A DNA stretch of 64,000 nt from positions 64,001-128,000 of the forward strand of contig CM000433.1 in assembly GCA_000165345.1 (NCBI GenBank), read 5' to 3'. This document shows, in pieces, positions 3,022 through 57,005 of the stretch; position 1 is the first letter of the stretch, and every line of letters starts with the position of its first letter. The notes under the pieces were generated by a model, which had not been told where the DNA came from, searched no databases, and was given only the letters and a program-made list of their open reading frames with translations. The translations under genes were made by a program, and so were the position numbers.

Positions 3022-3564
3022 TTAAACAGAGTTGCCTTTTGATTTATTCTTATCAGATTTTTTACTTTTCTTATCAGATTTTTCAGTTTTCTTTTTAACT
3101 TTAATTATATCGTCTTTACAAGTGATATTTTCAACATTTGATTCAAACTTTTGTTTTGATTTTGTTTTTTTTTTATCTTTCTTTGAATTGGAAGATTTAC
3201 TACTTTTGCTAGAAATTGATTGACTTTCATCCTCACTATCAGTAGAAAGGTCGTCTGAATTTAAATCTTCATATCTAGAATCATTAATATTTGTTGACAA
3301 TTTATTTGCAACATTATTATATGCATCTTTCCACCAATCTGACCAATCTTGAGAAGATTCTCTTGTAACTTTTGCACCAAGTCCTAAATTATCACTCTTT
3401 TTTTTTATTTGAATACATTCTTGCATTCCTACTTCTTCTTTTCCAAGACCTTTTCCTTCCGTCCAACCCATTTTTTGAAGCAAATTTATACCAATATTTG
3501 AAGAAAATGGAATTGCTGAATGTAATCCTCCACTATTCAATTTATCAAAATAATTCTTTGACAT
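3022..3564 (-). CDS. G-patch domain nucleolar protein, PinX1/Gno1-like
   Basis: Canonical G-patch near the N-terminus (NLLQKMGWTEGKGLGKEEVGMQECIQIKKKSDNLGLG) followed by a W-rich segment (SQDWSDWWKDAY) and a Lys/Ser-rich tail. Established G-patch consensus GxxxxxxMGWxxGxGLG...GLG. Confidence 0.7.
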   Translation of the reverse strand: MSKNYFDKLNSGGLHSAIPFSSNIGINLLQKMGWTEGKGLGKEEVGMQECIQIKKKSDNLGLGAKVTRESSQDWSDWWKDAYNNVANKLSTNINDSRYEDLNSDDLSTDSEDESQSISSKSSKSSNSKKDKKKTKSKQKFESNVENITCKDDIIKVKKKTEKSDKKSKKSDKNKSKGNSV

Positions 3565-3968
3565 TTTACATTTAAATATATCAGCTATAAACTAAATAAT
3601 ATTAACTTATATTAAAATATTATTTTATATCTTCTCCTTCTTACTTAAATTATAAATTTTGTTTAATTAATTACAAATCAATTTTAATAATAACTTTTTT
3701 CTTTCAAAATTAACTTAATTTATATTAATTTTGAACTATATTTATTCTCTTAATATTCTTTACTATAAAATAATTCAAATTTGTATCATGGAGATAAATA
3801 TATGACCGGATTTATAAATAAATTTTCTCAATTCCTTTTAATGTTATTAATTTTAATTTAATTAATCTATTAAGGGAAAAAAAATCATCCAAAATGTAAA
3901 TTTAGACCTTTAATACCTCCAACTATGAAATATTTTTATATTAATAATAAAAATTACTTTAAAATTAC

Positions 3969-3984
3969 GTGTGGCGCCAAAATA
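3969..3984. promoter_or_regulatory. E2F-like GGCGCC-core site (ACGTGTGGCGCCAAAA) in the promoter of the G-patch gene
   Basis: Isolated GC-rich motif in a spacer that is otherwise above 85% AT, about 400 bp upstream of the G-patch ATG. It matches the TTTSGCGC/GCGCCAAA E2F consensus half (established knowledge). The same core recurs at 30109, 39277, 44473, 54257 and 56991. Confidence 0.3.
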
Positions 3985-6125: not shown

Positions 6126-6840
6126 ATTTAAAAATTTAATTAATTATATGTAATTTACATAATATATTCAAATTATTAATATTATTAGATTCTTTATAAA
6201 TAAAACTTTTAATTTATCTGAATCTTGCATTTATTAGGGTATTTATAATCCCATAATTTTCATTAGCATTAATATAGTCACAATAATACGAGAATTTTTT
6301 TTTTTCTTTTCTTTTTTAATTATATTTCCAAAAAAAAAAAAAAAAAAATATAAATAAAATAATTTAATTAAATTTACCAAATCTTACTTGAATAATTGAT
6401 ATTGCTTAATTTTAATTTGAAATTTTTACAGTAAATGTTAGTATAATTCACTATTGGACTTTACTATATATTCTATTTCGTTTTTAACCCTTACTTCCTT
6501 GTATATTTATCTCAACAAGAATAAATAATAAACTTGGAAGAGAACATATATATATATATTGTTTATACTTGTACTTAAAACTCTAATATATATTTATACA
6601 TTATTATATATAAATATATATTCTTATATAGCATTGTATTTATGATATATTAATTATTATTATATTTATCTTGATTATATCTTTTTTTTGATTTTTAAAT
6701 TGTTTTTAATTTTAATTTTTTTTCTTCAATTATTTTACTTTATTACTATTTATTTTTATAATATAAATTTATTTTATATAATAACAGTCTGGACTGTACA
6801 AAAAGGCGGGAATTATGGGTTAAATTATATTATATACATA

Positions 6841-7985: not shown

Positions 7986-9517
7986 TTAATATTTCTTTAA
8001 TTAATTCAAATAATATTTATTTATATATTTAATGAATATAATGTTTATATTAATGCAAAATCATTGTATGATTTTTATAATTACCAAGTTTATAAAATAT
8101 TATCTTGTTTGTTAAGACAAATTCACTTATTTAATTTATATTCATTAGTAGATTTATGACTAACTTTCTTTCTTTTTAATTAAATATATCTATATATTAT
8201 CTATATATATATAGATATATATTTATATACATATATAAATAAATACATATGTATGTACATAAATATATTTCTTATACATATATATACATATATATAATTA
8301 TTACACAAGGTTTTTCAATAACTATACATTATTTGCACAACTTTTCTTCTTTTTTAATCTTGGTAATTATCCTTTTTCTTTAAGAAATATGAAAAAATAT
8401 TAATTATTAAAAAATCAAAATAATAGTATTATTATTATTATTTATTATTTTTCAACACAAATTATTACTAGTGATTTTAAATTGTTTATTTTTCAATTAT
8501 TTATTATATATTTATATAATTTATTTTATTTAATAAATAAATAAATTTATATGTAAATTAAATATATATTTATATATATACATAAACATTTAATTAAATA
8601 ATTGAAAAATAAGTTATAAATATTTTTGTTTATTTTAATGTACATAGTAATTTAATATTTACATGTGATCCCGCCTATAATCAAATTTTACTTTAATATT
8701 AATATCTTCCTCTTAAAAAAAAAACAATTTCAAGAATTATTCCAGTTATTTTTGACTGTTTTTTTTTTAAATTTCCTTTTTATAGAAAAAAAAAATCATT
8801 AAGAATTTTTATTATTAATTAAACTTATTTTCGTATTTTAACTTTCTTCTCTTTTTTTAATATTGCTAATAAATGACAATTATTTTATTAACTATTACAA
8901 TCCAAAACAACGAATAAAAGTTGAATAGGGGAAAAAAAAAACTAATATTACTTTAATGGAATGAAATATCTATTTAGAATGTTTTTAGTAGAACTCAACT
9001 CATTATAAATCTAGAATTCATATATACATATATATATATTTATTTATTTATTTATATTTTTTCTTCGCCCACTTAATTATACTTTAATCATTTTTTTTAC
9101 TTATAATGAAATAAATACACACACACATATACATATTTATATATTTACAAACACACAAAAAAGCCCGCCACAAAATCATTGAATTTTCCGCTTTCCCTTT
9201 CTCTCTCTTAGCATAATCACAACAAGATAAAAATACAAGAATTAATTTAATAAAGTAAATTTATTGCTACTTTCCCGCCTTTTATTTCTAATTAATTTAT
9301 TAGATACAAAAAAATGTTAAAAAAAAAGAGAAAAAAATGCATCTAATATTACATATGAACACAATTTCTTTATATTAAAAAACATTTTCAATAGATATCT
9401 ATGAATATTTTCTTTTTATTTGTTATTTAATATATAAAGCAAACATTAGGAAGATAAGAATGACATTCTAAATTAATGATTTTTGTTTATAATTTTTTTT
9501 GTTAGTTTTTCTTAATC

Positions 9518-9806: not shown

Positions 9807-12800
9807 ATGAGTTCATGCAATAATAATTTTCAAATGCTTGATGATTTGAAAAATAAAGGTAAATTTATTTCATAAAATCATTTTATTATTCTTATTCAAC
9901 CCTTTCTTCATTAATATATTTTTAGGTAACCAATTATTTATATCTGGAGATTATTTACAAAGCATTAAAATATATTCGAAATTCTTAATAATATAAATTC
10001 TCAAGAAACAAATATAAATAATGATTTTACCAAACTTAAATTACAAACTCTACTAAATAGAAGTGCATCTTATATTAAATTAAATGATTTTAATAATGGA
10101 CTTTTAGATTCTAATAATGCCTTAAATATTGATAATAAAAATATTAAAGGATTATTCAGAAAAGCTACTTGTCTTATTAATATAACTACTAATAACAATA
10201 ATGATTCTATTAAAAACTTGGATTTAGCAATTGATGAATTAAAAAAAGCTCTTTATATTGATAATAAAAATAAACCAATTAAAGAATTACTATCTAAAAC
10301 TATTATTCTTAAAAATGAATTAAATGATAAATATGAAACTAATAAATTACCAAGTGAAATACTTAAATATATTAAATGTAATATAATTCCAACCATTAAT
10401 AATAATATTAATTCTTTAAAAGAATTTCATGATAAATGGTTTGAATTCTATAAATATATATTATCCAATGGTACTCATGATATTATTATTAATAATAGTT
10501 GCTGTCAAGATCTTATTTATATACTTGAAAGATTTATTTATATTTCTGATAATATTATTAATATAATTAATAATAATAAATCAGATTCTGAATATAATAA
10601 AAAATTATATTATTATATAATATTTAATTCTTGGAATACTTTATCTTTATTAGTTGAAGAAAATGATATTATTACTGGTATATTTCAAGAAATAGACAAA
10701 GATGATATTAATTCATCATTATTCCAATTAAATAAAATAATCAACTTTAATAATAATAATAATAATCTTAATAAATTCANATCTTTAATTAGAATTAATA
10801 ATGATATTATCAATTTTACCAAAATTAAAGATTTTATTAATAATATTAATCCATTAATTCAAGAAAATCAATTAAAAACCAATTCAAAACAATTATTGAA
10901 TAGTATTTTTAATGTATTATTATGTACATTTAATTATAATTCAATAGATTTGAATGATACCTATCAACACATTAAACTTCTTACTTGTATTATTAATAAC
11001 CAATTAATTCAAGAAATTAATTCAACATTATATTTATTGGTTTTAAGAAATTTATCAATAATATTCCAACAAATCAAATCAAAAGGTACCAAAATTGAAG
11101 CTCTTGATTATAATACAGAAATTGAAAATTTGATTAATTCATTATTTTCTTTATCATATTATTATTTTAAATCTTCATTTAATGATATTTGTGGTAATAA
11201 TGATAATGATAATAAAATTCTACAAAGTTTAGAATTTATATTAACTATCATTTTTTCTTTAATTTCTGAAAAAGAAAGAAATAACCACCAAAATAATATA
11301 ATTGATATTCATAAAATTTCAAATAATCATATAATCTCCAAATATGTATTAAATTCAATCAAAAAATCTGATAATATTTTGGATAATGCTCATAATCAAG
11401 ATGATCATGAACAATCTTCAAATTGGATTGCTTTTGATTTTATTAATTTTATTAATGGATTAATGGGACTTAAAATACTTCATTATTCTAATAGAGAAGT
11501 ACTTAAAGGATTTATATTAAATTATCCACAAATTCTTCATTGTATATTATTAATAGTATTAACCAATTATTCAGAATATTATTCAATATTGAATTATTCA
11601 TTAAAAAATCAAACAAATGATTTTATTATTAGTGAAAAATTATTCAATATTATTATTAAACCTTGGTGTATTGAAATATTATCATTATTAATGGAATTTA
11701 GAGATACCACAAGATCAATTGTTAAAGATGATGATACCATTATTTTAATTTTTAATATTTGTAAGAATATTATTATATCGAATAATAATAATAATAATAA
11801 TAATAATGATACTTTAAATTTGAATGAATTGGATTCTTGTTGTAGACTTTTAAATGGTATTTCCAAAACAACCATGGAAAATAATGATATACTTGATTTA
11901 TTTATTAATCAATTAGATATTTTATCATTACTTGAACATATTTGGATTATTTTTCAAAATTATTATATAAATAATAATATTAATAATAAATTAATATGGT
12001 CTTGTATTCAAAATTCTTTTGAAATCTTTACAATACTTTCAATGCATAATATATTTAAATCCAAATTATTAATTTATAAAATGAAAAAGAATATTTCAAA
12101 TGTTAATGTTAATAATAACCAAAGTTTATTAAAGAATGAGAATTCCAATAAATCATCATCTTGTTGTTCACTTACAGAAAATGAATTATTTATTTTAAAT
12201 ATATTAAATTTACCAGAAATATATAATTATAATAAAAATATTAAATATTTCTCAAATACTTTTCTTTATCTTTATATATCATTCATACAAAATCTTCTTA
12301 CAAGTAATTATTCAGATCCATATTCAGAATCAAATAATAATAATAATTATGATGAATNTAAATCAGTATATTTTTTTAAAAAGGCAAAGATTNTATGGGC
12401 CAATATAATTCAGAAAATCATGTTGATTTTGATCAATCTCATTTAGAACAACTTGAAACATGTATAAACATTTACCAGATATACTCGTAATGAAAGAAAT
12501 GGACATTATGATAGAGGTGATGAAATTCTTGCAAATACTTATAGAAAATTAATGATTGAAAAATCAAATATTATAAGTTTTATGTATATTATTCTTGAAA
12601 AGAATATTTCCAATAATAATATTAATGATAATAATAATAAAAATACAACTTCATCATCATTGCCATTTATATTTAATATTGCAAATAATATTGTTGATTT
12701 AATTGTTAATACAGAAGACTTGAATGAAAAAAATTCAAAAGAAATATTATCTTTAAGAGGAAAAATAATCCAAAAAGGTGGTCTTAAATGTTTACTTGAT

Positions 12801-14617: not shown

Positions 14618-14857
14618 TCAATTTTCTGATTTTTCTAAATATATTGAATTGTTACTGTTACTGTTACTGTTACAGCTACTGTTATGATGATGATGATGAT
14701 GATGATGATGATTATTATTATTATTATTATTACTATCATCAGGCTTGATAATTAATGGCTTTATTGATTTGTTTTTATCATAAGTGATTATCTTATTAAC
14801 TGCTGATTGATTATTGATATTCTCACTTTTATTAGATTCATCAAAATATTTGATCAT
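14618..14857 (-). CDS. Hydrophilic low-complexity ORF (poly-Asn, His9, SN repeats): probable central cytoplasmic loop of the MFS transporter
   Basis: Same strand, lying between the two 6-TM halves and in the same frame as the downstream half. It ends in TGA 21 nt before the in-frame ATG of the C-terminal half. Confidence 0.35.
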   Translation of the reverse strand: MIKYFDESNKSENINNQSAVNKIITYDKNKSIKPLIIKPDDSNNNNNNNHHHHHHHHHNSSCNSNSNSNNSIYLEKSEN

Positions 14858-16484: not shown

Positions 16485-16515
16485 GCCGCCCACACTTTTA
16501 GGCGGGAAGTGTGGA
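16485..16515. repeat. Inverted repeat CCACACTT-(TTAGGCGGG)-AAGTGTGG in the F-box gene promoter
   Basis: 8-bp perfect arms, 9-bp GC-rich spacer, about 340 bp upstream of the 16855 ATG. It sits in a local GC island (gccgcccacacttttaggcgggaagtgtgg). Confidence 0.5.
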
Positions 16516-35104: not shown

Positions 35105-38100
35105 TTACCTCCATTTATTAGTATCAATATCACGTGTATCTCTTTCTTTATTTCTTTGATTATTTCTAGAAGAGTTACTAGAATGTCTTCCCATTGATGA
35201 AGATTGTTGCTGATTTTTTGATTGATCATTTGTACCAGTTCTTCTTAGATCCGTAAAACTAACATTTTTATTACTACTATTTGTTCTACTGAAACTTGAA
35301 TTACTAAAACCAGCTCCACTTTCAGCTCCTGAAGCACCACTTGATGAATTTGTCACTCTTGTTAAATCACGTGTAAAATCTACTCTTGATGGGCTTCCAT
35401 TTCCTGAAGTTCCAGTTTTTTGTCTTGTAAATTGTACACCTAAATTTTCAAGTTAAAAAAAAAGTATTATGAATAAAAAATAAATGACTATTCTCTAAAT
35501 GAATTTTTATACATATTATAACTTGAAAATTTTGATCATAATCCAAAAGAAAAAAATATTTGAATTAGAAATTCATTCTTATTAAAAAATATTCATACTG
35601 ACGTGCAAATTGGGATTATTCAATCATTTCTTTTTTCTGAAACATAAAAATTATTATTAATAATATAATAATAATCCTCATGTTCTAGCCAGTTTATAAT
35701 CATAATAATAATAACAAAAATGAATTTCTAATCCAAATATTTATTTTCCTTCTTTAAAAGTATTTTCAATTCAATATTTCATTTATATATATTAAAATGA
35801 AAAATTGCCGCGCGCGGCAAATTCATGTATAAATATTCATTCAATAGTCAAATTATTATTTAAACTTACCTGAAGAATTACCATTATTTGATCTAGAGTT
35901 ATTTCCAAAACTTCTATTAGAGTTGTTATTCCCACTTGTTTCTCCTCTTGTGAAGCTAATTGCATCACCTCTATCATTAAATCCACCACTATTATTATTA
36001 CTTGAATTATTAATATTACTACTACCACCACTACTCTTAGAATTTGCAGCCATTAATTTAGCCTCAATTTCCTCCTCTCTTCTTCTCTGCATTTCTAATT
36101 GTCTTTGCATCTTTAATCGTTTTTCCTCTTTTTGTCGGTTCGCTTCTTCAAGTAATCTTGCTTCTTCTTCCTCTCTCTTAGCCTCTTCTTCTTTTCTTCT
36201 TTGTTCTTCTTCATGTAATTTCTTTTCAATAGCTTCATTACGTCTAATCTTAGCTCTAGAAATCTTAAGCTCCTTAATCTTTTTAATACATCTTAATCTT
36301 TGTACCTTTAATTCATCCATAAGCTCTTCCTTTCTTATTTCTAATCGTTTATCTTTCCAATTATTTAAATATGGTAATATAGTTTTCAAGATTTCCTTTT
36401 CTTTATGTGCTTCCTTCTTAATTTCTTCTATCTTTAATAAATAACTATCTTGTAATTGTTTATGCAATTCTTTATCACTTTGAGATATTTTTTTATTCCA
36501 ATCCATTATTAATGGAATTTCCTCTAATCTATATGCTCTAGCTAAATGATCTAATCTTTTAGCTTCTTGTTTTCTTTGTTTAATTCTTTCTTGTCTTTCA
36601 AAGTTACATTGTTCCTCTTGTAATTTTTCTAAATCATCATATAATATTCTACCTTCTAATAAGTCTTCCAATGTTATTTCATCCAAAAGTTTTCCTTTTA
36701 ATACTATCTTATTTGAACTTGTATTCTTAAATGCAAGCTTTTTTATTGTTTCTAGCATCATTCTACAAGCTTCAATCTTATTCTTCTTAATCTCTTCCAA
36801 TTGTCTTGCCTCTTCTCTTCTTCTTCTATCTTCTTCTCTCTTTTGTATTTCCAATAACTCCTCTTGTGCTTTTGCTTCCTTTTCTTGACGTTTCTTATCC
36901 TCTTCAACTCTCTTAAGTTCCTCAATTCTTTCTTTTCTTCTTAATTTAATTTCTTCAATACGTTTTTCCATTGAAATCATTTCAATTGGAAGACGTCTCT
37001 GTACCATTTGAGAAATCTTTGTATTTTGATTATTTAATCCAACCTTTATATTATCTTTATCTAATCTTCTTAAAAGTGTTTCTAACATAAAAGCAGATGA
37101 TAATAATTGATTATTATATTTAGATCCCGAATTATTAATATTACATATTGTTTGTGTCTGTGATAATCCGTTATTATTCGATACAATATTATTTGAATTA
37201 CCACTATTTTTATAGCTATTATTAGCATAATTATTATATCCCAAGCATTTATCCACTGAATATATACATTTTCTTGCATAATCAATTCTTAAATTTATTA
37301 TTGAAGAATTTGATAATTGTACAAGAAGTTTTTCTGTGTCAGTCCATGGTAAAAAGTCATTTGGACATATATTCTTCAAAAATTGATCAATGCAAATAGA
37401 AGAATATACTCTTGAAATTAATAAAAATAGTTTTGTTAAAATAGTTACTTTCAAGGGACGTGTATATTCATTAAAATCTGGATCAATTTGCATCAAGTTT
37501 GTTAAAAGACCATTAGTACTAACACATAATTTCAAAGTATTAGATCTTCCTTCAATTATCCCATATAATTGCTGACATACTGGTAATGATAATCCTAAAA
37601 TATTCTTTGAAATTAACATACTTTTTAATATCTCCCTTGTTGGAATAAATAATGATCCTAATAATAATGCAGCTTTCTTAACTTGATCGCCTTGTGGATA
37701 ATAATCATTGGATGTCATATTTCCTGTAAAATAGCGTGATTTTGAATTTAAGCTCAAGTTATTCTCACTTAATGGAATTGATAATACTGCTAATACAACT
37801 GTAGAAGCCATTTTTGTTAATTCTTCCTGAGATACATTCTTTTTAAATTGCTTTAAATGTAAGAAATATTTTAAATGTGCCAAAGCATGGAATGAATAAT
37901 TCTCTGTTAATAAAAACATTTTACTTAATATATCATAATATAATGCAACCCATCTTAAATATGTTGGTCTAACTTTCATTGCATGTGCACTGTCCATAAT
38001 TTGTGAATTGGCGCCATTTGGGTTATTGGAATTTAATGGAAGAGTAGTACCGCCTAAAAAGTTATTTTGATTAATGCCATGTAATACATTAATTTGGTTA

Positions 38101-39276: not shown

Positions 39277-39290
39277 TTTTGGCGCCAAAA
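39277..39290. promoter_or_regulatory. Perfect palindromic E2F-type site TTTTGGCGCCAAAA in the divergent eIF3a / SET-gene promoter
   Basis: 14-bp perfect palindrome. It is identical in form to the classic overlapping inverted E2F site (TTTSGCGCSAAA, e.g. the DHFR promoter; established knowledge). It lies about 330 bp upstream of the eIF3a ATG and about 620 bp upstream of the SET gene ATG. Confidence 0.45.
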
Positions 39291-39908
39291 GACATCAGTA
39301 ATAGTAAATAATAACTCTGTCTCGTTATAATAATTAATTAATACTGCAACCAAAAAAAAATTCTTTTTTTTTCAGATAGAAATTTGTTTTCTGTTTTCTT
39401 TTTAAATGGACTATTTGACTTTCATGAAACCAATAAATTTCCTTATTTCCATTGTTTATTAATCTTTTTACGCTTATGAGCGAATATCGTTAATATAGTT
39501 ACTAAATATCTTTCAGTTGAATACTGAAATTTGCTATTAGATTGAACTCCTTAAATTTATCGAGATGATTATTCTCATTGAGGATATCTCACTTTTAACG
39601 CCAACTCCAATATTTATACTTATCCAAAACTTTGTTTCATGTTCATATACAAAATATTTGGCGGGTCAGCCGTTAAATTTACAATACTAAGTTACGTCAT
39701 TTATTCTGTGGGAAAAAAAAATAGTAAAATAAAGTATTGAACAATTCATGTTAATTAGTTAAAATCAATTTAAAAATTTATCAGCTAAATACTTCTAAAA
39801 TAAGTATTTATATCCTATCTGTAGAGTTTTTATCTTGCAATAATTATTTTAATCTGATAGTAAATGTATGTGAAAACATACTTAATTTGTTAACGAATAA
39901 AATTTCTA

Positions 39909-42900
39909 ATGCAAAAAAAAAAAGATGATGAAATAATAATTGAAAAAGGAGTAGAAGATGAAATTTTACATCCAATTTCAACCAATTGTACCATTGATGA
40001 AATTTCTCCACCAATTTCATTTCCATTGGACATAAGCATTAATGAGCAATTATTTGAGAGTGATTATTGGGATGATTATTTATCAGATTCTGAAACAGAC
40101 TATTGTGATAACTTTAATGTTAAAGATAAAGTTCATCCAACTAAACGAGTTTGGAATGATAACTTAGAAAGATCCTGCGGAGTATGCAATTATATAGAAA
40201 ACTACACTGAACTCTCAAATATGATAAAATGTGAAGGTTACTGCAGAAAACCATACCACTTAAAATGCGTCGGACTCGAAGAATTACCAAATACTCGATG
40301 GAAATGCCAAAACTGCATAAATAATCTTGTTTTTTGCAATATCTGCAACTCATTCAGCAATAAATCTAGCTGTAATTTTCTTAAATGTTATCATCCAATA
40401 TGTATGAGATTCTTCCACACTCAATGTTTACTTTATTATCAAAATAATATTATTTGGACCTTCAATAATTCATGTGGACAAAAGTGCGTGGCGCCTGACG
40501 AAAATGCATGTATGCACCCTGAGATAAATATAGGTGGTAAAATATTGAAAAAAATATTTGGCACAGAAAATGTGAATGAAGAAGAAGTAACTTCAAAGTT
40601 ATTGAATGAATTTGGATTTAAGTTCATTTGTGATCGTCATTATTGCTCATCTTGTAGTGACTATAATAAAAACAAGAGAATTTTGAAAAATGAAACTCAA
40701 ATTGAAATTTCAAGAAAAAAAAGAGTTATATTTAAATTAGATGATCCTGATGATTTATTCTACTGCATTAAATGCAATTCAGGGTATCACAGCCATTGTC
40801 TACATCCTGATTCTATTAAATTAGTAAATGGGGTTTGTATTTGTTATAAACATATACACGATCAAAGTGATATGATATTGGGTAGGTATAATATTAAAGA
40901 TGAAATTGACTCTAAGTTAAAAATACAGTTACAGAATTGTTTGAAGTCTAAGAATGGAAAAAGATTAAATAAGGAGCTAAAATTGGCATTAATACAAAAA
41001 ATAGTTAATCATTTAGAATCTTCAGAGTTTAATCTTAATTCATTACCATTCCAACTTCCTGGACAGTCAAAAGACTGGTTATGTATTGAAATAGAAAATC
41101 TAATTAATGAACATAATTTGAAATATGAGAGTCAAAAGGCCATAAATTTTTTACAAAATTATGGATTTACGCATATTAGAAGAAATATCTATTTAGAAAA
41201 TATTAACGACTCCCAAGATGAAGAATTTGAGACATTATCAGACACAGGTCATTCAGGAAGCAAAAATAAACAAAAAAAAGAAAAAAATATTAAAAATAAT
41301 CAAAATTTAAAGAAAAAAATATCTACATTAAATAAAAAAGATAAAATATTCAATGAAAAATGTGTTTGCAAAACAATTTGTGAAAAAGATACTTGCCAGA
41401 ATGCTGCAATGTTTATTGAATGCAATTCAAATATATGTGGGCTGGATGAAGGAATTCAGAAAAAAAATTGTATGAATAGAATATTTAATAGTAATAATAA
41501 CAAATTCTTAGATAATCAAAAGAAAATTATTTTAAAGAATTTAAAAGTTATAGATGCTGGAGAAAAAGGATTTGGTATTACTACTAATATGACTATTCCA
41601 AAAGATACTTTTATTATAGAATATGTCGGAGAAATATTAACTAGAGAAAATTACTTAAAAAGAGTTGAAAAATATAAGGAAAGAGAATTAGAATCAAGAA
41701 AAAAATCTATAATAATGGATTATTATAAAGAAGATCATGAGTTTAATGAAGACTTTGTCTTACCAAAAGATACTAGAGAAAGGCATTGGTACTGTATGGA
41801 GATTGGAAATGACTATATTATTGATAGTACAAATAAAGGAAATTTGAGTAGACTAATTAATCATAGTTGTGATCCAAATTGTATTGCGCAAAAATGGTTA
41901 GTAGGGAACGAATGTAGAGTTGGTATTTTCTCAAAAAGAGAAATTTTACCAAATGAAGAACTTACATATGATTACTCATTCACAGCTTTTGATATTGGTT
42001 TTAAATGTAAATGTAATTCTCCTTCATGCAAGGGAAGAATTGGAATAGAAAACTTTAAAGAAACTAATCAAGAACTTATTAAGAAAAGAAATTTACTATG
42101 TAAGAACACGAATATGATAAATTCATTCACAAATCTAAATAAATCATTATTTAATAATCCAATTTGTTCAGAAATAGATGAGATCTTTACGTCAAGATAT
42201 GATTATATTAATGACAATCCAGAATTTTACCATAAATTAGAAAAATATTGTGATAAAATTAGCAAATATAATCAAGTATTACATGATCATGTTACAAATG
42301 GGATTCAAATTTATCCATATGATTTCAAATTCAGAAATTCATTATATGGTTATACAAGCCTTTTATATTTTGATTCTCCTGATATAATTTCAGATTGGTA
42401 TTTTAAAAAATCAAAAAATATTGTTTTAATGAATAAACCATGGATTATTCTTCCCTTCGCATTTAATTCACGAGAATTTACTTATTTAAAATATCCATTA
42501 AATATGAATTATTTAAAAAAACAAGTATGTAAACGTTTAACTATTTCTTTGGATAAAAGCAATCCAAAACTAAGTAATAATTCAATTTTCTGGCATTTAT
42601 TTGATTTAGGGATTGGAAGTGATGAATGTTGTAATATTTGTAATAATCCCGGTACTTTAATTACGTGTGACTATTGTTATGATTCATTTCATAAATATTG
42701 CTTATATAATAATGAAATTCCAAATAATTTGAAAAGATCACGACTTTCTTATAATTATAATAAAGTTGAGGAAAAGATTAAATGTAGAAATTGTATGGAA
42801 AATGAGTTGATATCAGTTTATTGGCTTAAAACTACCTATAAGCGAAGAAGGTACAACTATTTTTTAAGACATAAATTACATTCTATTCCATTATATATTA

Positions 42901-42923
42901 ATAGAATAAACCCTCTTATATAA
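39909..42923 (+). CDS. Histone-lysine N-methyltransferase of the SET2/NSD/ASH1 class (PHD fingers + AWS-SET-postSET + C-terminal PHD)
   Basis: 1004-aa ORF. An N-terminal C4HC3 PHD-type finger (CGVCNYIENYTELSNMIKCEGYCRKPYHLKCVGLEELPNTRWKCQNC) is followed by further Cys/His clusters. The AWS-like segment is CVCKTICEKDTCQNAAMFIECNSNICGL. The SET core is GFGITTNMTIPKDTFIIEYVGEIL...NLSRLINHSCDPNCIAQKWLVGNECRVGIFSKREILPNEELTYDY. The post-SET is CKCNSPSCKGRIG. The C-terminal PHD is CCNICNNPGTLITCDYCYDSFHKYC...CRNC. Confidence 0.8.
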   Translation: MQKKKDDEIIIEKGVEDEILHPISTNCTIDEISPPISFPLDISINEQLFESDYWDDYLSDSETDYCDNFNVKDKVHPTKRVWNDNLERSCGVCNYIENYTELSNMIKCEGYCRKPYHLKCVGLEELPNTRWKCQNCINNLVFCNICNSFSNKSSCNFLKCYHPICMRFFHTQCLLYYQNNIIWTFNNSCGQKCVAPDENACMHPEINIGGKILKKIFGTENVNEEEVTSKLLNEFGFKFICDRHYCSSCSDYNKNKRILKNETQIEISRKKRVIFKLDDPDDLFYCIKCNSGYHSHCLHPDSIKLVNGVCICYKHIHDQSDMILGRYNIKDEIDSKLKIQLQNCLKSKNGKRLNKELKLALIQKIVNHLESSEFNLNSLPFQLPGQSKDWLCIEIENLINEHNLKYESQKAINFLQNYGFTHIRRNIYLENINDSQDEEFETLSDTGHSGSKNKQKKEKNIKNNQNLKKKISTLNKKDKIFNEKCVCKTICEKDTCQNAAMFIECNSNICGLDEGIQKKNCMNRIFNSNNNKFLDNQKKIILKNLKVIDAGEKGFGITTNMTIPKDTFIIEYVGEILTRENYLKRVEKYKERELESRKKSIIMDYYKEDHEFNEDFVLPKDTRERHWYCMEIGNDYIIDSTNKGNLSRLINHSCDPNCIAQKWLVGNECRVGIFSKREILPNEELTYDYSFTAFDIGFKCKCNSPSCKGRIGIENFKETNQELIKKRNLLCKNTNMINSFTNLNKSLFNNPICSEIDEIFTSRYDYINDNPEFYHKLEKYCDKISKYNQVLHDHVTNGIQIYPYDFKFRNSLYGYTSLLYFDSPDIISDWYFKKSKNIVLMNKPWIILPFAFNSREFTYLKYPLNMNYLKKQVCKRLTISLDKSNPKLSNNSIFWHLFDLGIGSDECCNICNNPGTLITCDYCYDSFHKYCLYNNEIPNNLKRSRLSYNYNKVEEKIKCRNCMENELISVYWLKTTYKRRRYNYFLRHKLHSIPLYINRINPLI

Positions 42924-43072: not shown

Positions 43073-44116
43073 TTACTTTTCATCTTTAGGGTCGTTTATA
43101 CCCCCTTCTGTAATAGAAAATGTGGCATCCCCTTCAGGTAGATTCGGGGAATCGTAGATTTTGCAAATTCTTGTCTCCCCACGTCCTTTTTTGAGGAATA
43201 ATCTAGTTTGTGAAGCATGAGCAATAATATTACCTCCAATAGGCACTTTATCATTTTGGAACATGGCGGCCATGGCATCGACTTTTGACATTACTTGATT
43301 AGTGATAACAACTGCGACGCCAAAAGTATCCGCAATTTTTTGAAGAGCTCTTAGAAACTGGCCTAAATGGCTTTGTCTAGTTGCTAATTCTCCTCTTCCA
43401 TTATATTCTGATCTATAAAGCGCAGTTGCGCTATCAACAATCATTAATGCAAATCTGGATTCTGTCATCATAGCTACAGCTGATTGTAATAAATCCATTT
43501 GATGTTCAGTATTAAATCCTCTGGCATAGGCAATATTATCTAAGCAATCTGAAGCATTCAAGTTAAATCTATCAGCAATTTGAACAATTCTTTCAGGCCT
43601 AAAAGTACCTTCAGTATCAATCCATAAACACTTTCCTTCACCTCCTTTATGTTCAACAGGAAGCTGGCAAGTTACAGCAAGAGTGTGGCATAATTGAGTT
43701 TTTCCTGTTCTAAATTCACCAAAAATTTCTGTAATACTTCCTGTTTCTATTCCACCTTGTAAAAGTCTATCTAATTGGCTAGAACCCGTTGTAAATTTGA
43801 TTAGATTGGTTCTAGCTTCTAAATATTCAGTTCCACTGCAAAATCCCATTGCTACTAATTCTTTGCATGCAGATTTTATTTTATCACATTTTTGTTCACT
43901 AATTCCTTTAACTGACAATAAAGCTTTTTTAGGAGCATAAGCAAGACATTCTATTGTATGATATCCATTTTCACGGAGTATTTCTAGATCCCTTTTTGTT
44001 AATCCACTTGGAAGAAGATGCTCCAGTTTTAATGGCCCATTATATACTGTTTCATTTAAATTATTTTGATTTTCATTATTTTCATTGACTATTTCGTTTG
44101 GGTTTATTGTTGACAT
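43073..44116 (-). CDS. rad51: RAD51 recombinase (RecA/Rad51 family strand-exchange protein)
   Basis: 347 aa. HhH region [34 protein letters not shown]. Walker [22 protein letters not shown]. Block [19 protein letters not shown]...[33 protein letters not shown]...[11 protein letters not shown]. The C-terminus is [36 protein letters not shown]. It is near-identical in pattern to eukaryotic Rad51 (closer to Rad51 than to Dmc1, which has MALFRVDFSGRGELAERQ), from memory. Confidence 0.92.
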
Positions 44117-44472
44117 ATTTAAAATTAATTATTAATTAGTATAACTTTAGTTTTGTTTTTCCAATACTTAATTACACACAGGCTTTTAAAAATGTTTTGC
44201 CTTATATATGTCTCTTAGTTTAAGAACTTGTCATAAAAATTTAATGTTTCAATTCACTTTTGTCTGTTCAAAATTTCTTTTCAAAAGTGATAAAGTTGTT
44301 TGCCAGTTCTAATTTGTAAATTCAATATTAACATCCAAATAAATAATAGCTATACTTTATTATTTGAAAACTAATAATATTATTGATAAAATTCTTCTCT
44401 CCAATTAAATAAAATTAATTGATATTTACTTAAAAACTTATTGATAGACGATAAATAATACAAATACAATGT

Positions 44473-44517
44473 GTGGCGCCAAATTTCCCCACATGTGGCT
44501 TCACATGCACCGGTATA
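44473..44517. promoter_or_regulatory. rad51 promoter GC cluster: E2F-like TGTGGCGCCAAATTT + palindrome CCACATGTGG + CACCGGTAT
   Basis: It lies about 360-400 bp upstream of the rad51 ATG. E2F-like core at 44473-44487, a 10-bp perfect palindrome at 44489-44498, and an ACCGGTAT element at 44509-44517. A second GGCGC element (TATGTGGCGCATATGC) is at 44862-44877. Confidence 0.45.
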
Positions 44518-45547
44518 GGTAATATTGCAATGATGCATGTGGACAATTTTTAACAATGATGTAATAATTATTCAAAAAAAAAAATGTTAATTGATTTGAA
44601 GAATTTATTTATCATTTTTTAAGAAGGAACTTAAAAATTTAATAGAATGGCTATTTTGTGAAGATATTGCTATAATAATGCTTTTCAAATTTAAGAATAA
44701 AAGCTCGAACGAAGAATTGTTGTAAGAACAATATGTCTTGAAGATTTTTCTTTTAAAGAAAAAAGAAATAAAATTTCTATAAATGGAGAAAACTATGATT
44801 AATTGAATATTGAAACTTATATATCTATTTAAAAAAAAAAAAATTAGCTCTATACTCAAAATATGTGGCGCATATGCTTAAAAAATATGCATAGATAATG
44901 TGCATTATATAAAGATATGCATAATTTGTAAATATCCTATGCATTTTATGTGAGGAGAAAATATAATATTTATTAAATACAGTGAGGTACCAAATAATAA
45001 TTAAATACGAGGATAAATGATCTAAATATCTACGCACTTATTATTGGATCTCGTAAACGGGGAAAAATAAATAAATAAAATACATAAGAGGTTTGTTGAT
45101 AAAGTGAGTGAATGAAAGGAGGAATATTGAGGATTGGAAAGAAAGGAAATATTCACAATAGGAGAGATTTCAACAAATAAAGATTGTTGCGAAAATAACC
45201 ATAACTTTAATTCAAATAAAACAAAAAAAAAAAAAAATAGTTGCTAATCTATGTTTATATTAAAAAGCAGCTTTTATTGAAAGAGTTTGAATGAATCTTT
45301 GATTGAATGTTGAGATCAAATAAATAAAATAACTGAAAATCAAAATTATAATTATATATATATTTATATATATATATATATATATAATTATATATACATA
45401 AATATTTATTTATATTTATATTTATATATATTTATATTTATCAATAAATGATTACTAAATTTAACAGGAAGCTTTGGTAAGCTATATTTCGCAATAAAAG
45501 GTTTTTTTTTAAAAGATAAGATTGGTTAAATTAGATTAGAGAGAGTA

Positions 45548-50967: not shown

Positions 50968-50987
50968 ACACGTATGGCGGGAACATG
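50968..50987. repeat. Left copy of a 20-bp inverted repeat ACACGTATGGCGGGAACATG
   Basis: 19/20 identical to the reverse complement of 52708-52727. It lies 62 bp upstream of the TPR gene ATG. Confidence 0.7.
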
Positions 50988-52034: not shown

Positions 52035-52707
52035 TTTCTTTTCTTTTTTCAAATAAATTTGCGATTTTCAAAATAACTATTTTAAAGTAATTCAATTTAC
52101 ATATAAATATAAGTATATATATTAGTTAATATAATAATTTAGAAAATTATTATTTACTAATAATTTAAGAAATAATGAAATTATATAATTATATAATTTT
52201 TTCAATTATAGGTTTTTTTTTGCATGCATTTAGATATTAAATATTTTATTCATTTAATACTTTATGAATATCCAAGTGGATTTTTTTTTTTTTTTTATAA
52301 ATAATTAATAATTTTTGGATATTCTTATAATCCCTAACTATTTTAATAATTGTTTTCTGGTTTTTTAAATTTCTATTAAGAAAATAAAACTTTACGTATA
52401 ATTTCAAAATTTGATAGATCTTTCACTTTAATTCAATCCAATTGCATGTAATTCGAATCTGAGATTTTAATACTTTCAAATTTTATCAGATTTGGGTTTT
52501 TCCCGCCAAAACAAAATGATATTAATTATATTAAAATAAGAGAAGAATAAGTAGAATTAGAAATTAGGAATAGAGGTTTAGGAATAGAGAGAAGAAAATA
52601 AAGAATAAAAAATGAGGATACATTTAAAAAAAATGAGAAATAAAATGTAAAAAGAGTTAATAAGATATTGATAATTATTTTAACAAAAAAATTGACATTA
52701 AAAAATA

Positions 52708-52789: not shown

Positions 52790-53746
<957 letters not shown>

Positions 53747-54256: not shown

Positions 54257-54268
54257 TATGGCGCCACA
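54257..54268. promoter_or_regulatory. E2F-like TATGGCGCCACA flanked by CCACTT/AAGTGG inverted repeat and a TTTACCGCCAC element
   Basis: The sequence acatttaccgccactttatggcgccacattcaagtgg lies about 165 bp upstream of the small plus-strand gene at 54428 and about 515 bp upstream of the RING gene ATG. Confidence 0.35.
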
Positions 54269-55047: not shown

Positions 55048-56133
55048 TTATAATATTTCAAACACAAAATTTGAAATTTCATTTTGTGCCTTTTTTATAT
55101 GTTTTGAATTAGTTAATAAATGATTTCCATTATTAATTTTCAAAAGTCTTAAATATCTGTTGTTTTTATTACTAAAATTATTATTTAAATTTAATAAATT
55201 TAATGACATTTGAAAAGGTACCGATTGATCATCAGTACCATGTATTAATAATATTGGATAATTAACCACTTTTTCTTTATTTTCTAATAGAAAATTATAT
55301 GTTGGAAATATATTATATGACTCCAAATAATCTCTTGAAATTAATTTTAAATCATCTTTTATTTTATTTATATGATTAATTTTAACAATTGGTATTTTTG
55401 TATTAATTTTTGTATATCCTAATTCGTTAAATTCATTTAATTGTTCATTATTAAAATCTAATATATAACTTTCTGGAATATTATCTACACATGCAATACA
55501 TATTATACCAATTAAATTATTATTTGAAATAAAGTATTCATTTTCACATTTTATATCTTTTCTTGTATAATTAGTTGAATAAGAAAAGGTTAAAAATGCA
55601 CCTGTACTTATACCAATCATTATTAATTTTGAATTTTTAAATAATATATTAGAAAAACATTCTACTATTGTTTCAATATCATACATATCTTTTGTTAACG
55701 TTTTGTCATAAAATTCACCTCTTTGAGATAATTTACCAATTCCATTAGTATTAAATGATACAAATAAAAATTTATCAATTTGACTTTTTTCCTTGAGCTT
55801 ATTTATATGGTTTTCACTTAAACATATATCCCTCATCTTTCCACAAAATCTAGATAACTTAATATTTTCATCGATTAAATCTTTAATAATTTCCAATTTA
55901 TAAGCTTCAGAATGACATAAATAATTATCTATTAGTTGAAATTCAATAGTATTCTCATTATTATTATAATCTATTGAGTAATCTGGAAATCCATGATTAT
56001 ATATATATATCAAGACTTGATCATTTTGTAAGTCCTTATTATCCTGAGTTAAATACTTTGTTAATGAGAAATTACTTTCAACATAAGTGAATATTCCATT
56101 AATTCTTAATAAATTTTTAAAATTTTGAGACAT
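55048..56133 (-). CDS. Alpha/beta-hydrolase fold serine hydrolase
   Basis: The true ATG is at 56133-56131 (MSQNFKNLLRING...); the ORF-track start at 56151 is an alternative TTG. GxSxG nucleophile elbow IMIGISTGAF. HG motif YIYNHGFPD. C-terminal LLIHGTDDQSVP (acid/His region typical of the fold). Confidence 0.6.
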   Translation of the reverse strand: MSQNFKNLLRINGIFTYVESNFSLTKYLTQDNKDLQNDQVLIYIYNHGFPDYSIDYNNNENTIEFQLIDNYLCHSEAYKLEIIKDLIDENIKLSRFCGKMRDICLSENHINKLKEKSQIDKFLFVSFNTNGIGKLSQRGEFYDKTLTKDMYDIETIVECFSNILFKNSKLIMIGISTGAFLTFSYSTNYTRKDIKCENEYFISNNNLIGIICIACVDNIPESYILDFNNEQLNEFNELGYTKINTKIPIVKINHINKIKDDLKLISRDYLESYNIFPTYNFLLENKEKVVNYPILLIHGTDDQSVPFQMSLNLLNLNNNFSNKNNRYLRLLKINNGNHLLTNSKHIKKAQNEISNFVFEIL

Positions 56134-56143
56134 ATCAAAATAT

Positions 56144-56821
56144 TTAATCAACTGAATTCAAGTCTATAGAATTTTCAATTTTCTCAAAAATTTTAAAAAC
56201 AGGAACTAACTTAATATCTTGACCAATTTTATTATTTTTATTATTATTGTTATTATTATTATCCAAATTAAATTTTGATTTATCTTTTTTTGCACTATTA
56301 ATAATAAAACTTAATTCACTTAAAGAACTTTCTGGAATATTTGGGTGATGATTTAAAAATCTTTCAACTTGTCTATATCTTTCTTCTCTAACTTGTTCAA
56401 TTAAATTACTAATTGCCTTTTTTTCTGATAGTAAATATTTATGTATTATATAATTTGAAGTACTTATAAAAAAATCCCCTAATTTCAATAATTTGTTTGA
56501 AATATCAAATTGGCTATATTCTAATCCCTGTAATGTTGTAACTTTATTATTCTTTTTTGATTGATTAATTTGACTATATTCTCTTCTTAATGCTGATAGT
56601 GATTCTCTATTAATATTCAAATTAATATCAAGTTCAATTAACTGAAAATAAAATGAATAGAATAAATATTTTATCATGTGAAATTATTTATTTCAAATTT
56701 TGATGTTATGGTTTTAAATATTTAACTCACCTGTTGATGTTGTTGTATTATTTTATCTGCTTCAAAAGTAAGTTTCTTTAAATCACTTATATATTTACTA
56801 TTATCGGAAAAGATCTCCATT
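56144..56821 (-). CDS. Two-exon gene for a small (about 195 aa) coiled-coil protein, unknown function; ends 12 nt upstream of the hydrolase ATG
   Basis: Exon 1 is 56732-56821 (MEIFSDNSKYISDLKKLTFEADKIIQQHQQ; GTGAGT donor at 56731-56726). Intron 56642-56731 (…TTTTCAG). Exon 2 is 56144-56641 (LIELDINLNINRESLSALRREYSQ...KIENSIDLNSVD*), in phase 0. It matches ORF-track entry 56144-56677 downstream of the acceptor. Confidence 0.5.
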
Positions 56822-56990: not shown

Positions 56991-57005
56991 TTAGGCGCCA
57001 ATTCG
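56991..57005. promoter_or_regulatory. GGCGCC-core E2F-like site TTAGGCGCCAATTCG in divergent promoter (coiled-coil/hydrolase gene vs Rpn13)
   Basis: Same TTAGGCGCC half as the 30109 palindrome core. It lies about 180 bp upstream of both the 56821 and 57183 ATGs. Confidence 0.3.

Follow-up and report, generated by a model that had tools for sequence, protein, structure and literature searches.

GC-rich promoter sites around rad51 of Cryptosporidium parvum belong to the published E2F-like motif and recur at orthologous promoters of seven Cryptosporidium species

Introduction

A 64-kb stretch of DNA carrying rad51 (the window) contains GGCGCC-cored sites that recur in its AT-rich spacers, and the locus therefore raises the question of whether these sites form a genuine cis-regulatory family and which factor would bind them. 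The original prediction, made from the sequence alone, regarded them as E2F-type sites in a dictyostelid genome and related them to the E2F/Rb pathway. Here we identified the source of the window, mapped the sites relative to its genes, compared them among seven Cryptosporidium species, and set them against the published motifs of this genus.

Results

Source of the window and gene map

A dictyostelid source, as originally predicted, was rejected. The Rad51 ORF (43073-44116, − strand) is an exact match to C. parvum EAK88173.1/QOY41474.1, and the SET/PHD ORF (39909-42923) is an exact match to C. parvum EAK88172.1/QOY41473.1. Both proteins are encoded on CP044418.1, a C. parvum chromosome record of 1.09 Mb, and every stretch of the window compared with this record was at least 99.9% identical. 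These exact protein matches and the DNA identity assign the window to the apicomplexan C. parvum. Ambiguous bases are found at 10780, 12358, 12393, 28126-28168, 29242, and 56968, and a 3-nt length difference from CP044418.1 lies between 56677 and 57183; therefore, the assembly of the window is older than, or different from, CP044418.1.

The gene map was based on C. parvum gene calls, ORFs, and Pfam, and site positions are given relative to start codons, not transcription start sites. On this map, 47.7 kb of the window is genic and 16.3 kb is intergenic. The AT content of the intergenic DNA is 81%, lower than the ca. 88% first estimated. The genes around rad51 are cgd5_390 (eIF3a), cgd5_400 (SET/PHD), cgd5_410 (Rad51), and, across the rad51 spacer, cgd5_420. 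The gene names proposed earlier (Rad51, eIF3a, Rpn13, and tma7) were all borne out by Pfam. No tRNA or known RNA family was found near the sites within the 64-kb window.

Enrichment of two hexamers upstream of start codons

All seven strings quoted in the original prediction are present in the window, five at exactly the coordinates given and two displaced by 1-2 nt (3967 instead of 3969, and 44472 instead of 44473). They are as follows.

3967-3982, ACGTGTGGCGCCAAAA: head-to-tail spacer, 409 nt upstream of a G-patch gene (3022-3564, − strand)
30106-30123, TTAGGCGCCAGCGCCTAA: double site in the divergent promoter of a Cys-rich ORF and TMA7
39277-39290, TTTTGGCGCCAAAA: E2F-like site in the divergent promoter of eIF3a (cgd5_390) and SET/PHD (cgd5_400)
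44472, TGTGGCGCCAAATTT: GGCGCC site upstream of rad51
44862-44876, TATGTGGCGCATATG: partial GGCGC/GCGCC site in the rad51/cgd5_420 spacer
54257-54268, TATGGCGCCACA: divergent promoter of a RING gene (52790-53746, − strand) and a 102-aa gene (~54428, + strand)
56991-57003, TTAGGCGCCAATT: divergent promoter of a 177-aa gene and Rpn13, 189 nt from the Rpn13 ATG

GGCGCC occurs eight times in 64 kb (3973, 30109, 38010, 39281, 40490, 44475, 54260, and 56994), compared with a mean of 0.05 and a maximum of 1 in 100 dinucleotide-preserving shuffles. Six copies are intergenic, compared with a mean of 0.048 and a maximum of 2 in 1000 shuffles of the 16.3 kb of spacer DNA. A second hexamer, GGCGGG/CCCGCC, occurs 11 times (0.078 expected), every time in intergenic DNA upstream of a start codon, and was not found in the 47.7 kb of genic DNA. 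The list of seven strings had thus been correct in what it contained but had missed these 11 sites and the two coding copies of GGCGCC. The GGCGGG/CCCGCC sites are as follows.

2814-2819, GGCGGGAAA E2F-like variant: 208 nt upstream of a 464-aa gene
6805-6810, GGCGGGAA variant: upstream of a kinase gene
8670-9279, three CCCGCC copies (8670, 9164, and 9274): divergent spacer of 240-aa and 1244-aa genes
16501-16506, GGCGGGAA variant: divergent spacer, 354 nt upstream of a 479-aa ORF
27031-27036, CCCGCC variant: divergent spacer of 1167-aa and 633-aa genes
34968-34973, TTCCCGCC variant: 364 nt upstream of a 204-aa gene
39660-39665, GGCGGG variant: 249 nt upstream of the SET/PHD ATG
50976-50981, GGCGGGAA variant: 70 nt upstream of a TPR gene
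52502-52507, TTTTTCCCGCCAAAA variant: 468 nt upstream of a CAP_C gene

Taken together, 17 intergenic sites were observed where ca. 0.13 were expected, and all 17 lie upstream of a start codon. Of the 33 all-G/C hexamers in the spacers, 17 are one or the other of these two; each remaining type has at most two copies, except for the homopolymer CCCCCC (seven copies). At the six intergenic copies of GGCGCC, all 12 half-sites have A or T next to the core, and in 10 of them this base, read outward, is A. Seven of the 11 GGCGGG/CCCGCC sites are GGCGGGAA, which we take to be the classical E2F site, and AA directly follows GGCGGG in seven of the 11. With these A/T flanks and the GGCGGG-AA form, the sites match the canonical E2F consensus as well as the published Cryptosporidium motif.

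The six intergenic GGCGCC sites are 124-628 nt from a start codon, and five of them are flanked by divergent gene pairs, 3973 alone being in a head-to-tail spacer; this placement agrees with the 100-600 bp, usually between divergent genes, that had been predicted. The distribution of strict sites among the spacers of the window was as follows.

Divergent spacers: strict site in 8 of 10
Tandem (head-to-tail) spacers: strict site in 6 of 11
Convergent spacers: strict site in 0 of 10
Promoter-bearing spacers: strict site in 14 of 21, absent from 7

The sites were not concentrated at genes for S phase, replication, or repair, the neighbours including eIF3a, TMA7, Rpn13, kinase, G-patch, and CAP_C genes. 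The suspicion that the factor is broader than a cell-cycle E2F is therefore in line with the presence of a site in 14 of 21 promoter-bearing spacers, and the literature considered below agrees.

Two GGCGCC copies lie in coding DNA, at 38010-38015 (eIF3a) and 40490-40495 (SET/PHD), where 0.11 copies would be expected in genic DNA. Four species retain the copy in SET/PHD; the one in eIF3a is limited to C. parvum and C. meleagridis. Separately, next to the site at 56991, a peptidase S9-like ORF (55048-56151) and the 177-aa ORF (56144-56677, − strand) overlap by 8 nt in different frames. A single peptidase S9 gene of 611-615 aa is found at the counterpart of 55048-56677 in C. bovis and C. ryanae; in C. 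parvum, the two ORFs probably belong to a single gene that is interrupted by a short intron, a frameshift, or an assembly error.

Conservation and exchange of variants among seven species

We compared C. parvum with C. meleagridis, C. ubiquitum, C. canis, C. felis, C. bovis, and C. ryanae, using syntenic rad51 with 10 kb on each side from the six species; the gastric species C. muris and C. andersoni were left out. In the six other species, the sites were again concentrated in promoter-bearing spacers, and none was found in the convergent spacers.

At the eIF3a/SET-PHD promoter, the site TTTTGGCGCCAAAA lies 333 nt away from the start codon of eIF3a and 628 nt away from that of SET. It is a perfect 14-bp palindrome, which we take to equal the palindromic high-affinity E2F site. 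In all seven species, TGTCTTT(T)GGCGC[C/T]A was present in this spacer as a single copy per 21-kb locus, with the strand unchanged. The other six species keep only the T-tract side of the site, ATGTCTTT(T)GGCGC, and the perfect palindrome is specific to C. parvum among the seven. Accordingly, the original description of the site was right in position and form, but the double E2F site is not kept in the other six species, and the palindrome was rejected as the conserved unit because conservation is on one flank only. C. bovis keeps TTTGGCGC here even though its core is GGCGCT.

Two further observations concern the neighbourhood of this site. A TAACGAGACAGAG block (39315-39327), ca. 25 nt from the site, is conserved and does not fit the E2F motif. 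The 16 bp at 35805-35820 (TTGCCGCGCGCGGCAA) form a perfect palindrome, which lies just beyond the stop codon of the long ORF of eIF3a and therefore inside the intron implied by the 1137-aa gene call. C. meleagridis, C. ubiquitum, and C. canis share its core, CCGCGCGCGG. This palindrome could be an intronic E2F-type site with a CGCGCG core, or something else.

The rad51/cgd5_420 spacer (ca. 1.4 kb) is poorly alignable outside its conserved blocks. One of these is a composite block of 71 bp (44472-44542, − strand), ca. 360 nt upstream of the rad51 ATG, in which GGCGCC (44475-44480) is combined with two TGCAT-type elements and a G-box (GTGGGG). Its sequence on the rad51 strand is CCACATGCATCA..TGCAA..TACCGGTGCATGT..CATGTGGGGAAAT..GGCGCCACA, with the GGCGCC site at its end. 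It is one of the two longest runs of columns identical in 7/7 species in the seven-species spacer alignment, and GGGGAAATnnGGCGC[C/T]A occurs as a single copy per locus in all seven. At or near the position aligned to 44862, GCGCC is found in 7/7 species, and the full GGCGCC in C. ubiquitum. The other of the two longest runs is the CCCCGTTTACGAGATCCA block (45045-45062), which is kept in 7/7 species, does not fit the E2F motif, and has ACGAGA in common with the TAACGAGACAGAG block. To our knowledge, no factor is known for the CCCCGTTTACGAGATCCA and TAACGAGACAGAG blocks.

The spacer around 30109 at first appeared to lie between two 3′ ends, and a terminator or other element between convergent genes was considered. 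This was rejected since the spacer contains two small genes absent from the C. parvum gene calls for the region: a Cys-rich 56-aa ORF (29556-29726, − strand), metallothionein-like and conserved in C. canis and C. meleagridis, for which a Pfam search gave no hit, and TMA7 (30233-30391, + strand; Pfam PF09072). This places the 30109 site within a divergent promoter. TTAGGCGCCAGCGCCTAA is the centre of an inverted repeat (30083-30146) with 31-nt arms that are 94% complementary. At the aligned position, TGGCGCCGGCGCCA is present in C. meleagridis and C. canis, so that the site is found in all three species examined. The long AT-rich arms are specific to C. parvum, the other two species keeping only the 12-14 bp GC palindrome. 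The 31-nt-arm repeat was thus rejected as the functional unit, as only the GGCGCC(G/A)GCGCC core is kept in these two species.

GGCGCC, GGCGGG, and GCGCGCC were exchanged between orthologous promoters, as listed below. The 52502 variant of the CAP_C gene was kept in five other species.

TPR gene promoter (50976): mostly CCCGCC, kept in 4 other species; GGCGCC in C. bovis
SET/PHD promoter (position aligned to 39660): mostly CCCGCC, including C. meleagridis and C. canis; GCGCGCGCC in C. felis; GGCGCC in C. bovis
204-aa gene promoter (34968): mostly GGCGGG, kept in 5 other species; GGCGCC in C. felis
RING/102-aa gene promoter: GGCGCC in C. parvum, C. canis, and C. felis; GGCGGG in C. bovis and C. 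ryanae

Such exchange is expected if one factor with a TTTSSCGC-type specificity accepts all three variants. The sequence comparison indicates that the sites are under selection, being conserved at orthologous promoters of other Cryptosporidium species. Enrichment, placement in promoter spacers, and seven-species conservation all agree with the earlier view that this is a real cis-regulatory family.

In C. bovis, GGCGCT replaces GGCGCC at both the eIF3a/SET (9850-9866) and the rad51 (14804-14817) orthologous sites (coordinates of the C. bovis locus), and only three strict sites are found in the 21-kb locus; in each of the other six species, the locus has 6-9 that are intergenic. These features hint that site preference in the C. 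bovis lineage has been relaxed or has shifted. Since GGCGCT is found at both sites in C. bovis and some promoters have no strict site, the full hexamer is not obligatory.

Relation to the published E2F-like motif and other known elements

The sites in the window are the already published E2F-like motif of C. parvum, given as 5′-[A/T][C/G]GCGC[G/C][A/T]-3′ in a 2025 review (PMC12246861). Oberstaller et al. 2013, who credited its first notice to Bankier et al. 2003, reported the E2F motif 5′-TGGCGCCA-3′, with the core [C/G]GCGC[G/C], and GGCGGG among the most over-represented upstream motifs of C. parvum; the genes that it precedes include those for ribosomal proteins, DNA repair, glycolysis, and many other groups (PMC3734150). 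Of all upstream motifs in C. parvum, E2F is over-represented the most (PMC3734150, PMC4117751, PMC12246861). The text of Mullapudi 2007 mentions neither E2F nor GCGC. In Table S4 of Oberstaller 2013, cluster 129 (eIF3, cgd5_390) carries E2F only, cluster 50 (cgd5_400) carries G-box and E2F, and cluster 107 (Rad51, cgd5_410) carries AP2_1, G-box, E2F, and motif 14 (PMC3734150); AP2_1, G-box, and E2F are types present in the conserved rad51 block. The organism, core, upstream location, and breadth of targets are all the same as those of this published motif (motifs 3 and 4 of Oberstaller 2013), and nothing essential differs. What is new is the seven-species comparison of two sites and the replacement of GGCGCC and GGCGGG by each other at orthologous promoters.

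The motif was found upstream in 161 of 200 clusters, and E2F/DP was proposed to carry a disproportionate share of regulation (Oberstaller 2014, PMC4117751). In sporozoites, E2F1 was the top motif in ATAC-seq peaks, more than half of which were bidirectional promoters, and E2F and DP were expressed chiefly in early asexual stages (Xiao 2025, bioRxiv 10.1101/2025.01.17.633476). The E2F genes are cgd1_1560 and cgd6_1430, and the DP genes are cgd7_3650 and cgd8_1850 (PMC12246861, bioRxiv 10.1101/2025.01.17.633476). Cryptosporidium is the sole apicomplexan genus reported to have E2F/DP (PMC3734150, PMC12246861). No pRb orthologue has been reported in any apicomplexan (Oberstaller 2013, PMC3734150), and the E2F/Rb framing of the original prediction does not hold here. 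Very few putative regulatory components of Cryptosporidium have been experimentally confirmed (PMC12246861), and Oberstaller 2013 called for a ChIP-seq test of the motifs (PMC3734150).

The sites share the consensus of canonical E2F/DP sites (TTTSGCGCS; animals, plants, and Dictyostelium, under Rb control), and the repair gene rad51 is among the targets here. They differ from Rb-controlled sites in that no Rb is reported and most promoter-bearing spacers are targeted, beyond S-phase genes, and from the canonical palindromic site in that one T-tract side is conserved and the palindrome is species-specific. Cis-elements of ApiAP2 factors (TGCATGCA, G-box GTGGGG, and CACACA) are likewise short conserved promoter motifs in AT-rich spacers and co-occur with GGCGCC in the rad51 block, but their sequence and presumed factor class differ.

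Discussion

The sites are very likely the Cryptosporidium E2F-like promoter motif together with its GGCGGGAA variant, putatively bound by E2F/DP as a broad activator. The present analysis contributes enrichment, restriction to promoter spacers, deep conservation, and interchange of variants; the literature reports E2F/DP genes and no Rb, and associates the motif with open chromatin. From these we infer that E2F/DP is the binding factor and that its binding activates transcription. Heterodimers of E2F (cgd1_1560, cgd6_1430) and DP (cgd7_3650, cgd8_1850) would bind the short GC cores, which stand out against spacers of 81% AT, 70-700 nt upstream of start codons and within nucleosome-free promoter regions, and a single site or site pair would often serve two divergent genes. 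Given that no Rb-type pocket protein has been reported in apicomplexans, the factor probably activates or licenses promoters broadly in sporozoites and the early asexual stages, and is unlikely to be a cell-cycle switch. ApiAP2 sites (TGCAT and G-box) may add specificity, as in the rad51 block.

The conserved elements might instead be bound by another protein with E2F-like specificity, such as an unprofiled ApiAP2, zinc-finger, or CXC-type factor. Binding of the sites by C. parvum E2F/DP is putative only (PMC3734150, PMC12246861), the mRNA profiles of E2F do not track the motif-bearing ribosomal-protein genes (PMC3734150), and the recurrent flank TGTGGCGCC/GGCGCCACA (3973, 44475, 54260, and 44867) is outside the textbook E2F consensus and overlaps CACACA-type AP2 motifs (PMC4117751). 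On the other hand, the core, the A/T flanks, and the GGCGGGAA variant are close to that consensus, and variants fitting TTTSSCGC replace each other at orthologous promoters. The AP2 binding specificities that overlap over-represented upstream motifs do not include the E2F-like motif, and this protein-binding-array comparison assigns it to a non-AP2 factor (PMC4117751); furthermore, the abundance of the motif coincides with the one apicomplexan genus reported to have E2F/DP (PMC3734150, PMC12246861). We thus regard another factor as improbable.

A role exerted mostly through DNA structure, in which the GC hexamers exclude nucleosomes or mark boundaries in AT-rich spacers, is less probable again. 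The sites do coincide with open chromatin (bioRxiv 10.1101/2025.01.17.633476) and are the chief GC-rich features of the spacers, and 30109 lies inside a potential cruciform. However, two hexamer types alone make up 17 of 33 all-G/C hexamers, a 6-bp element could not by itself exclude a nucleosome, conservation is precise to the base amid spacers that are hard to align, and the long inverted repeat is lost in C. meleagridis and C. canis. Chance or a compositional artefact has little but the short length of the motif in its favour and can be practically dismissed: the observed counts were reached in none of the 100 (window) or 1000 (intergenic) shuffles, and the pattern is repeated independently in six other species.

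Beyond E2F/DP acting as a broad activator, a more tentative reading, which we consider possible although rather unlikely, is that without Rb the sites work as a general promoter-organising element that opens chromatin and establishes bidirectional promoters at most housekeeping genes, similar to the general regulatory factors of yeast, with ApiAP2 sites layered on it in fixed modules and with a factor that is possibly not E2F/DP. If so, the 71-bp block of rad51, which is conserved across the genus, would be one such composite module.

Little is understood of gene regulation in Cryptosporidium, a major cause of diarrhoea in children. The present analysis rediscovered from raw sequence a motif that is thought to dominate the promoters of this genus and raises no new question. 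Its practical gain is a set of well-defined conserved sites for binding experiments (39277, 44475, and 30109), and conservation and variant interchange lend modest added support to the E2F-like motif as a regulatory element of Cryptosporidium promoters.
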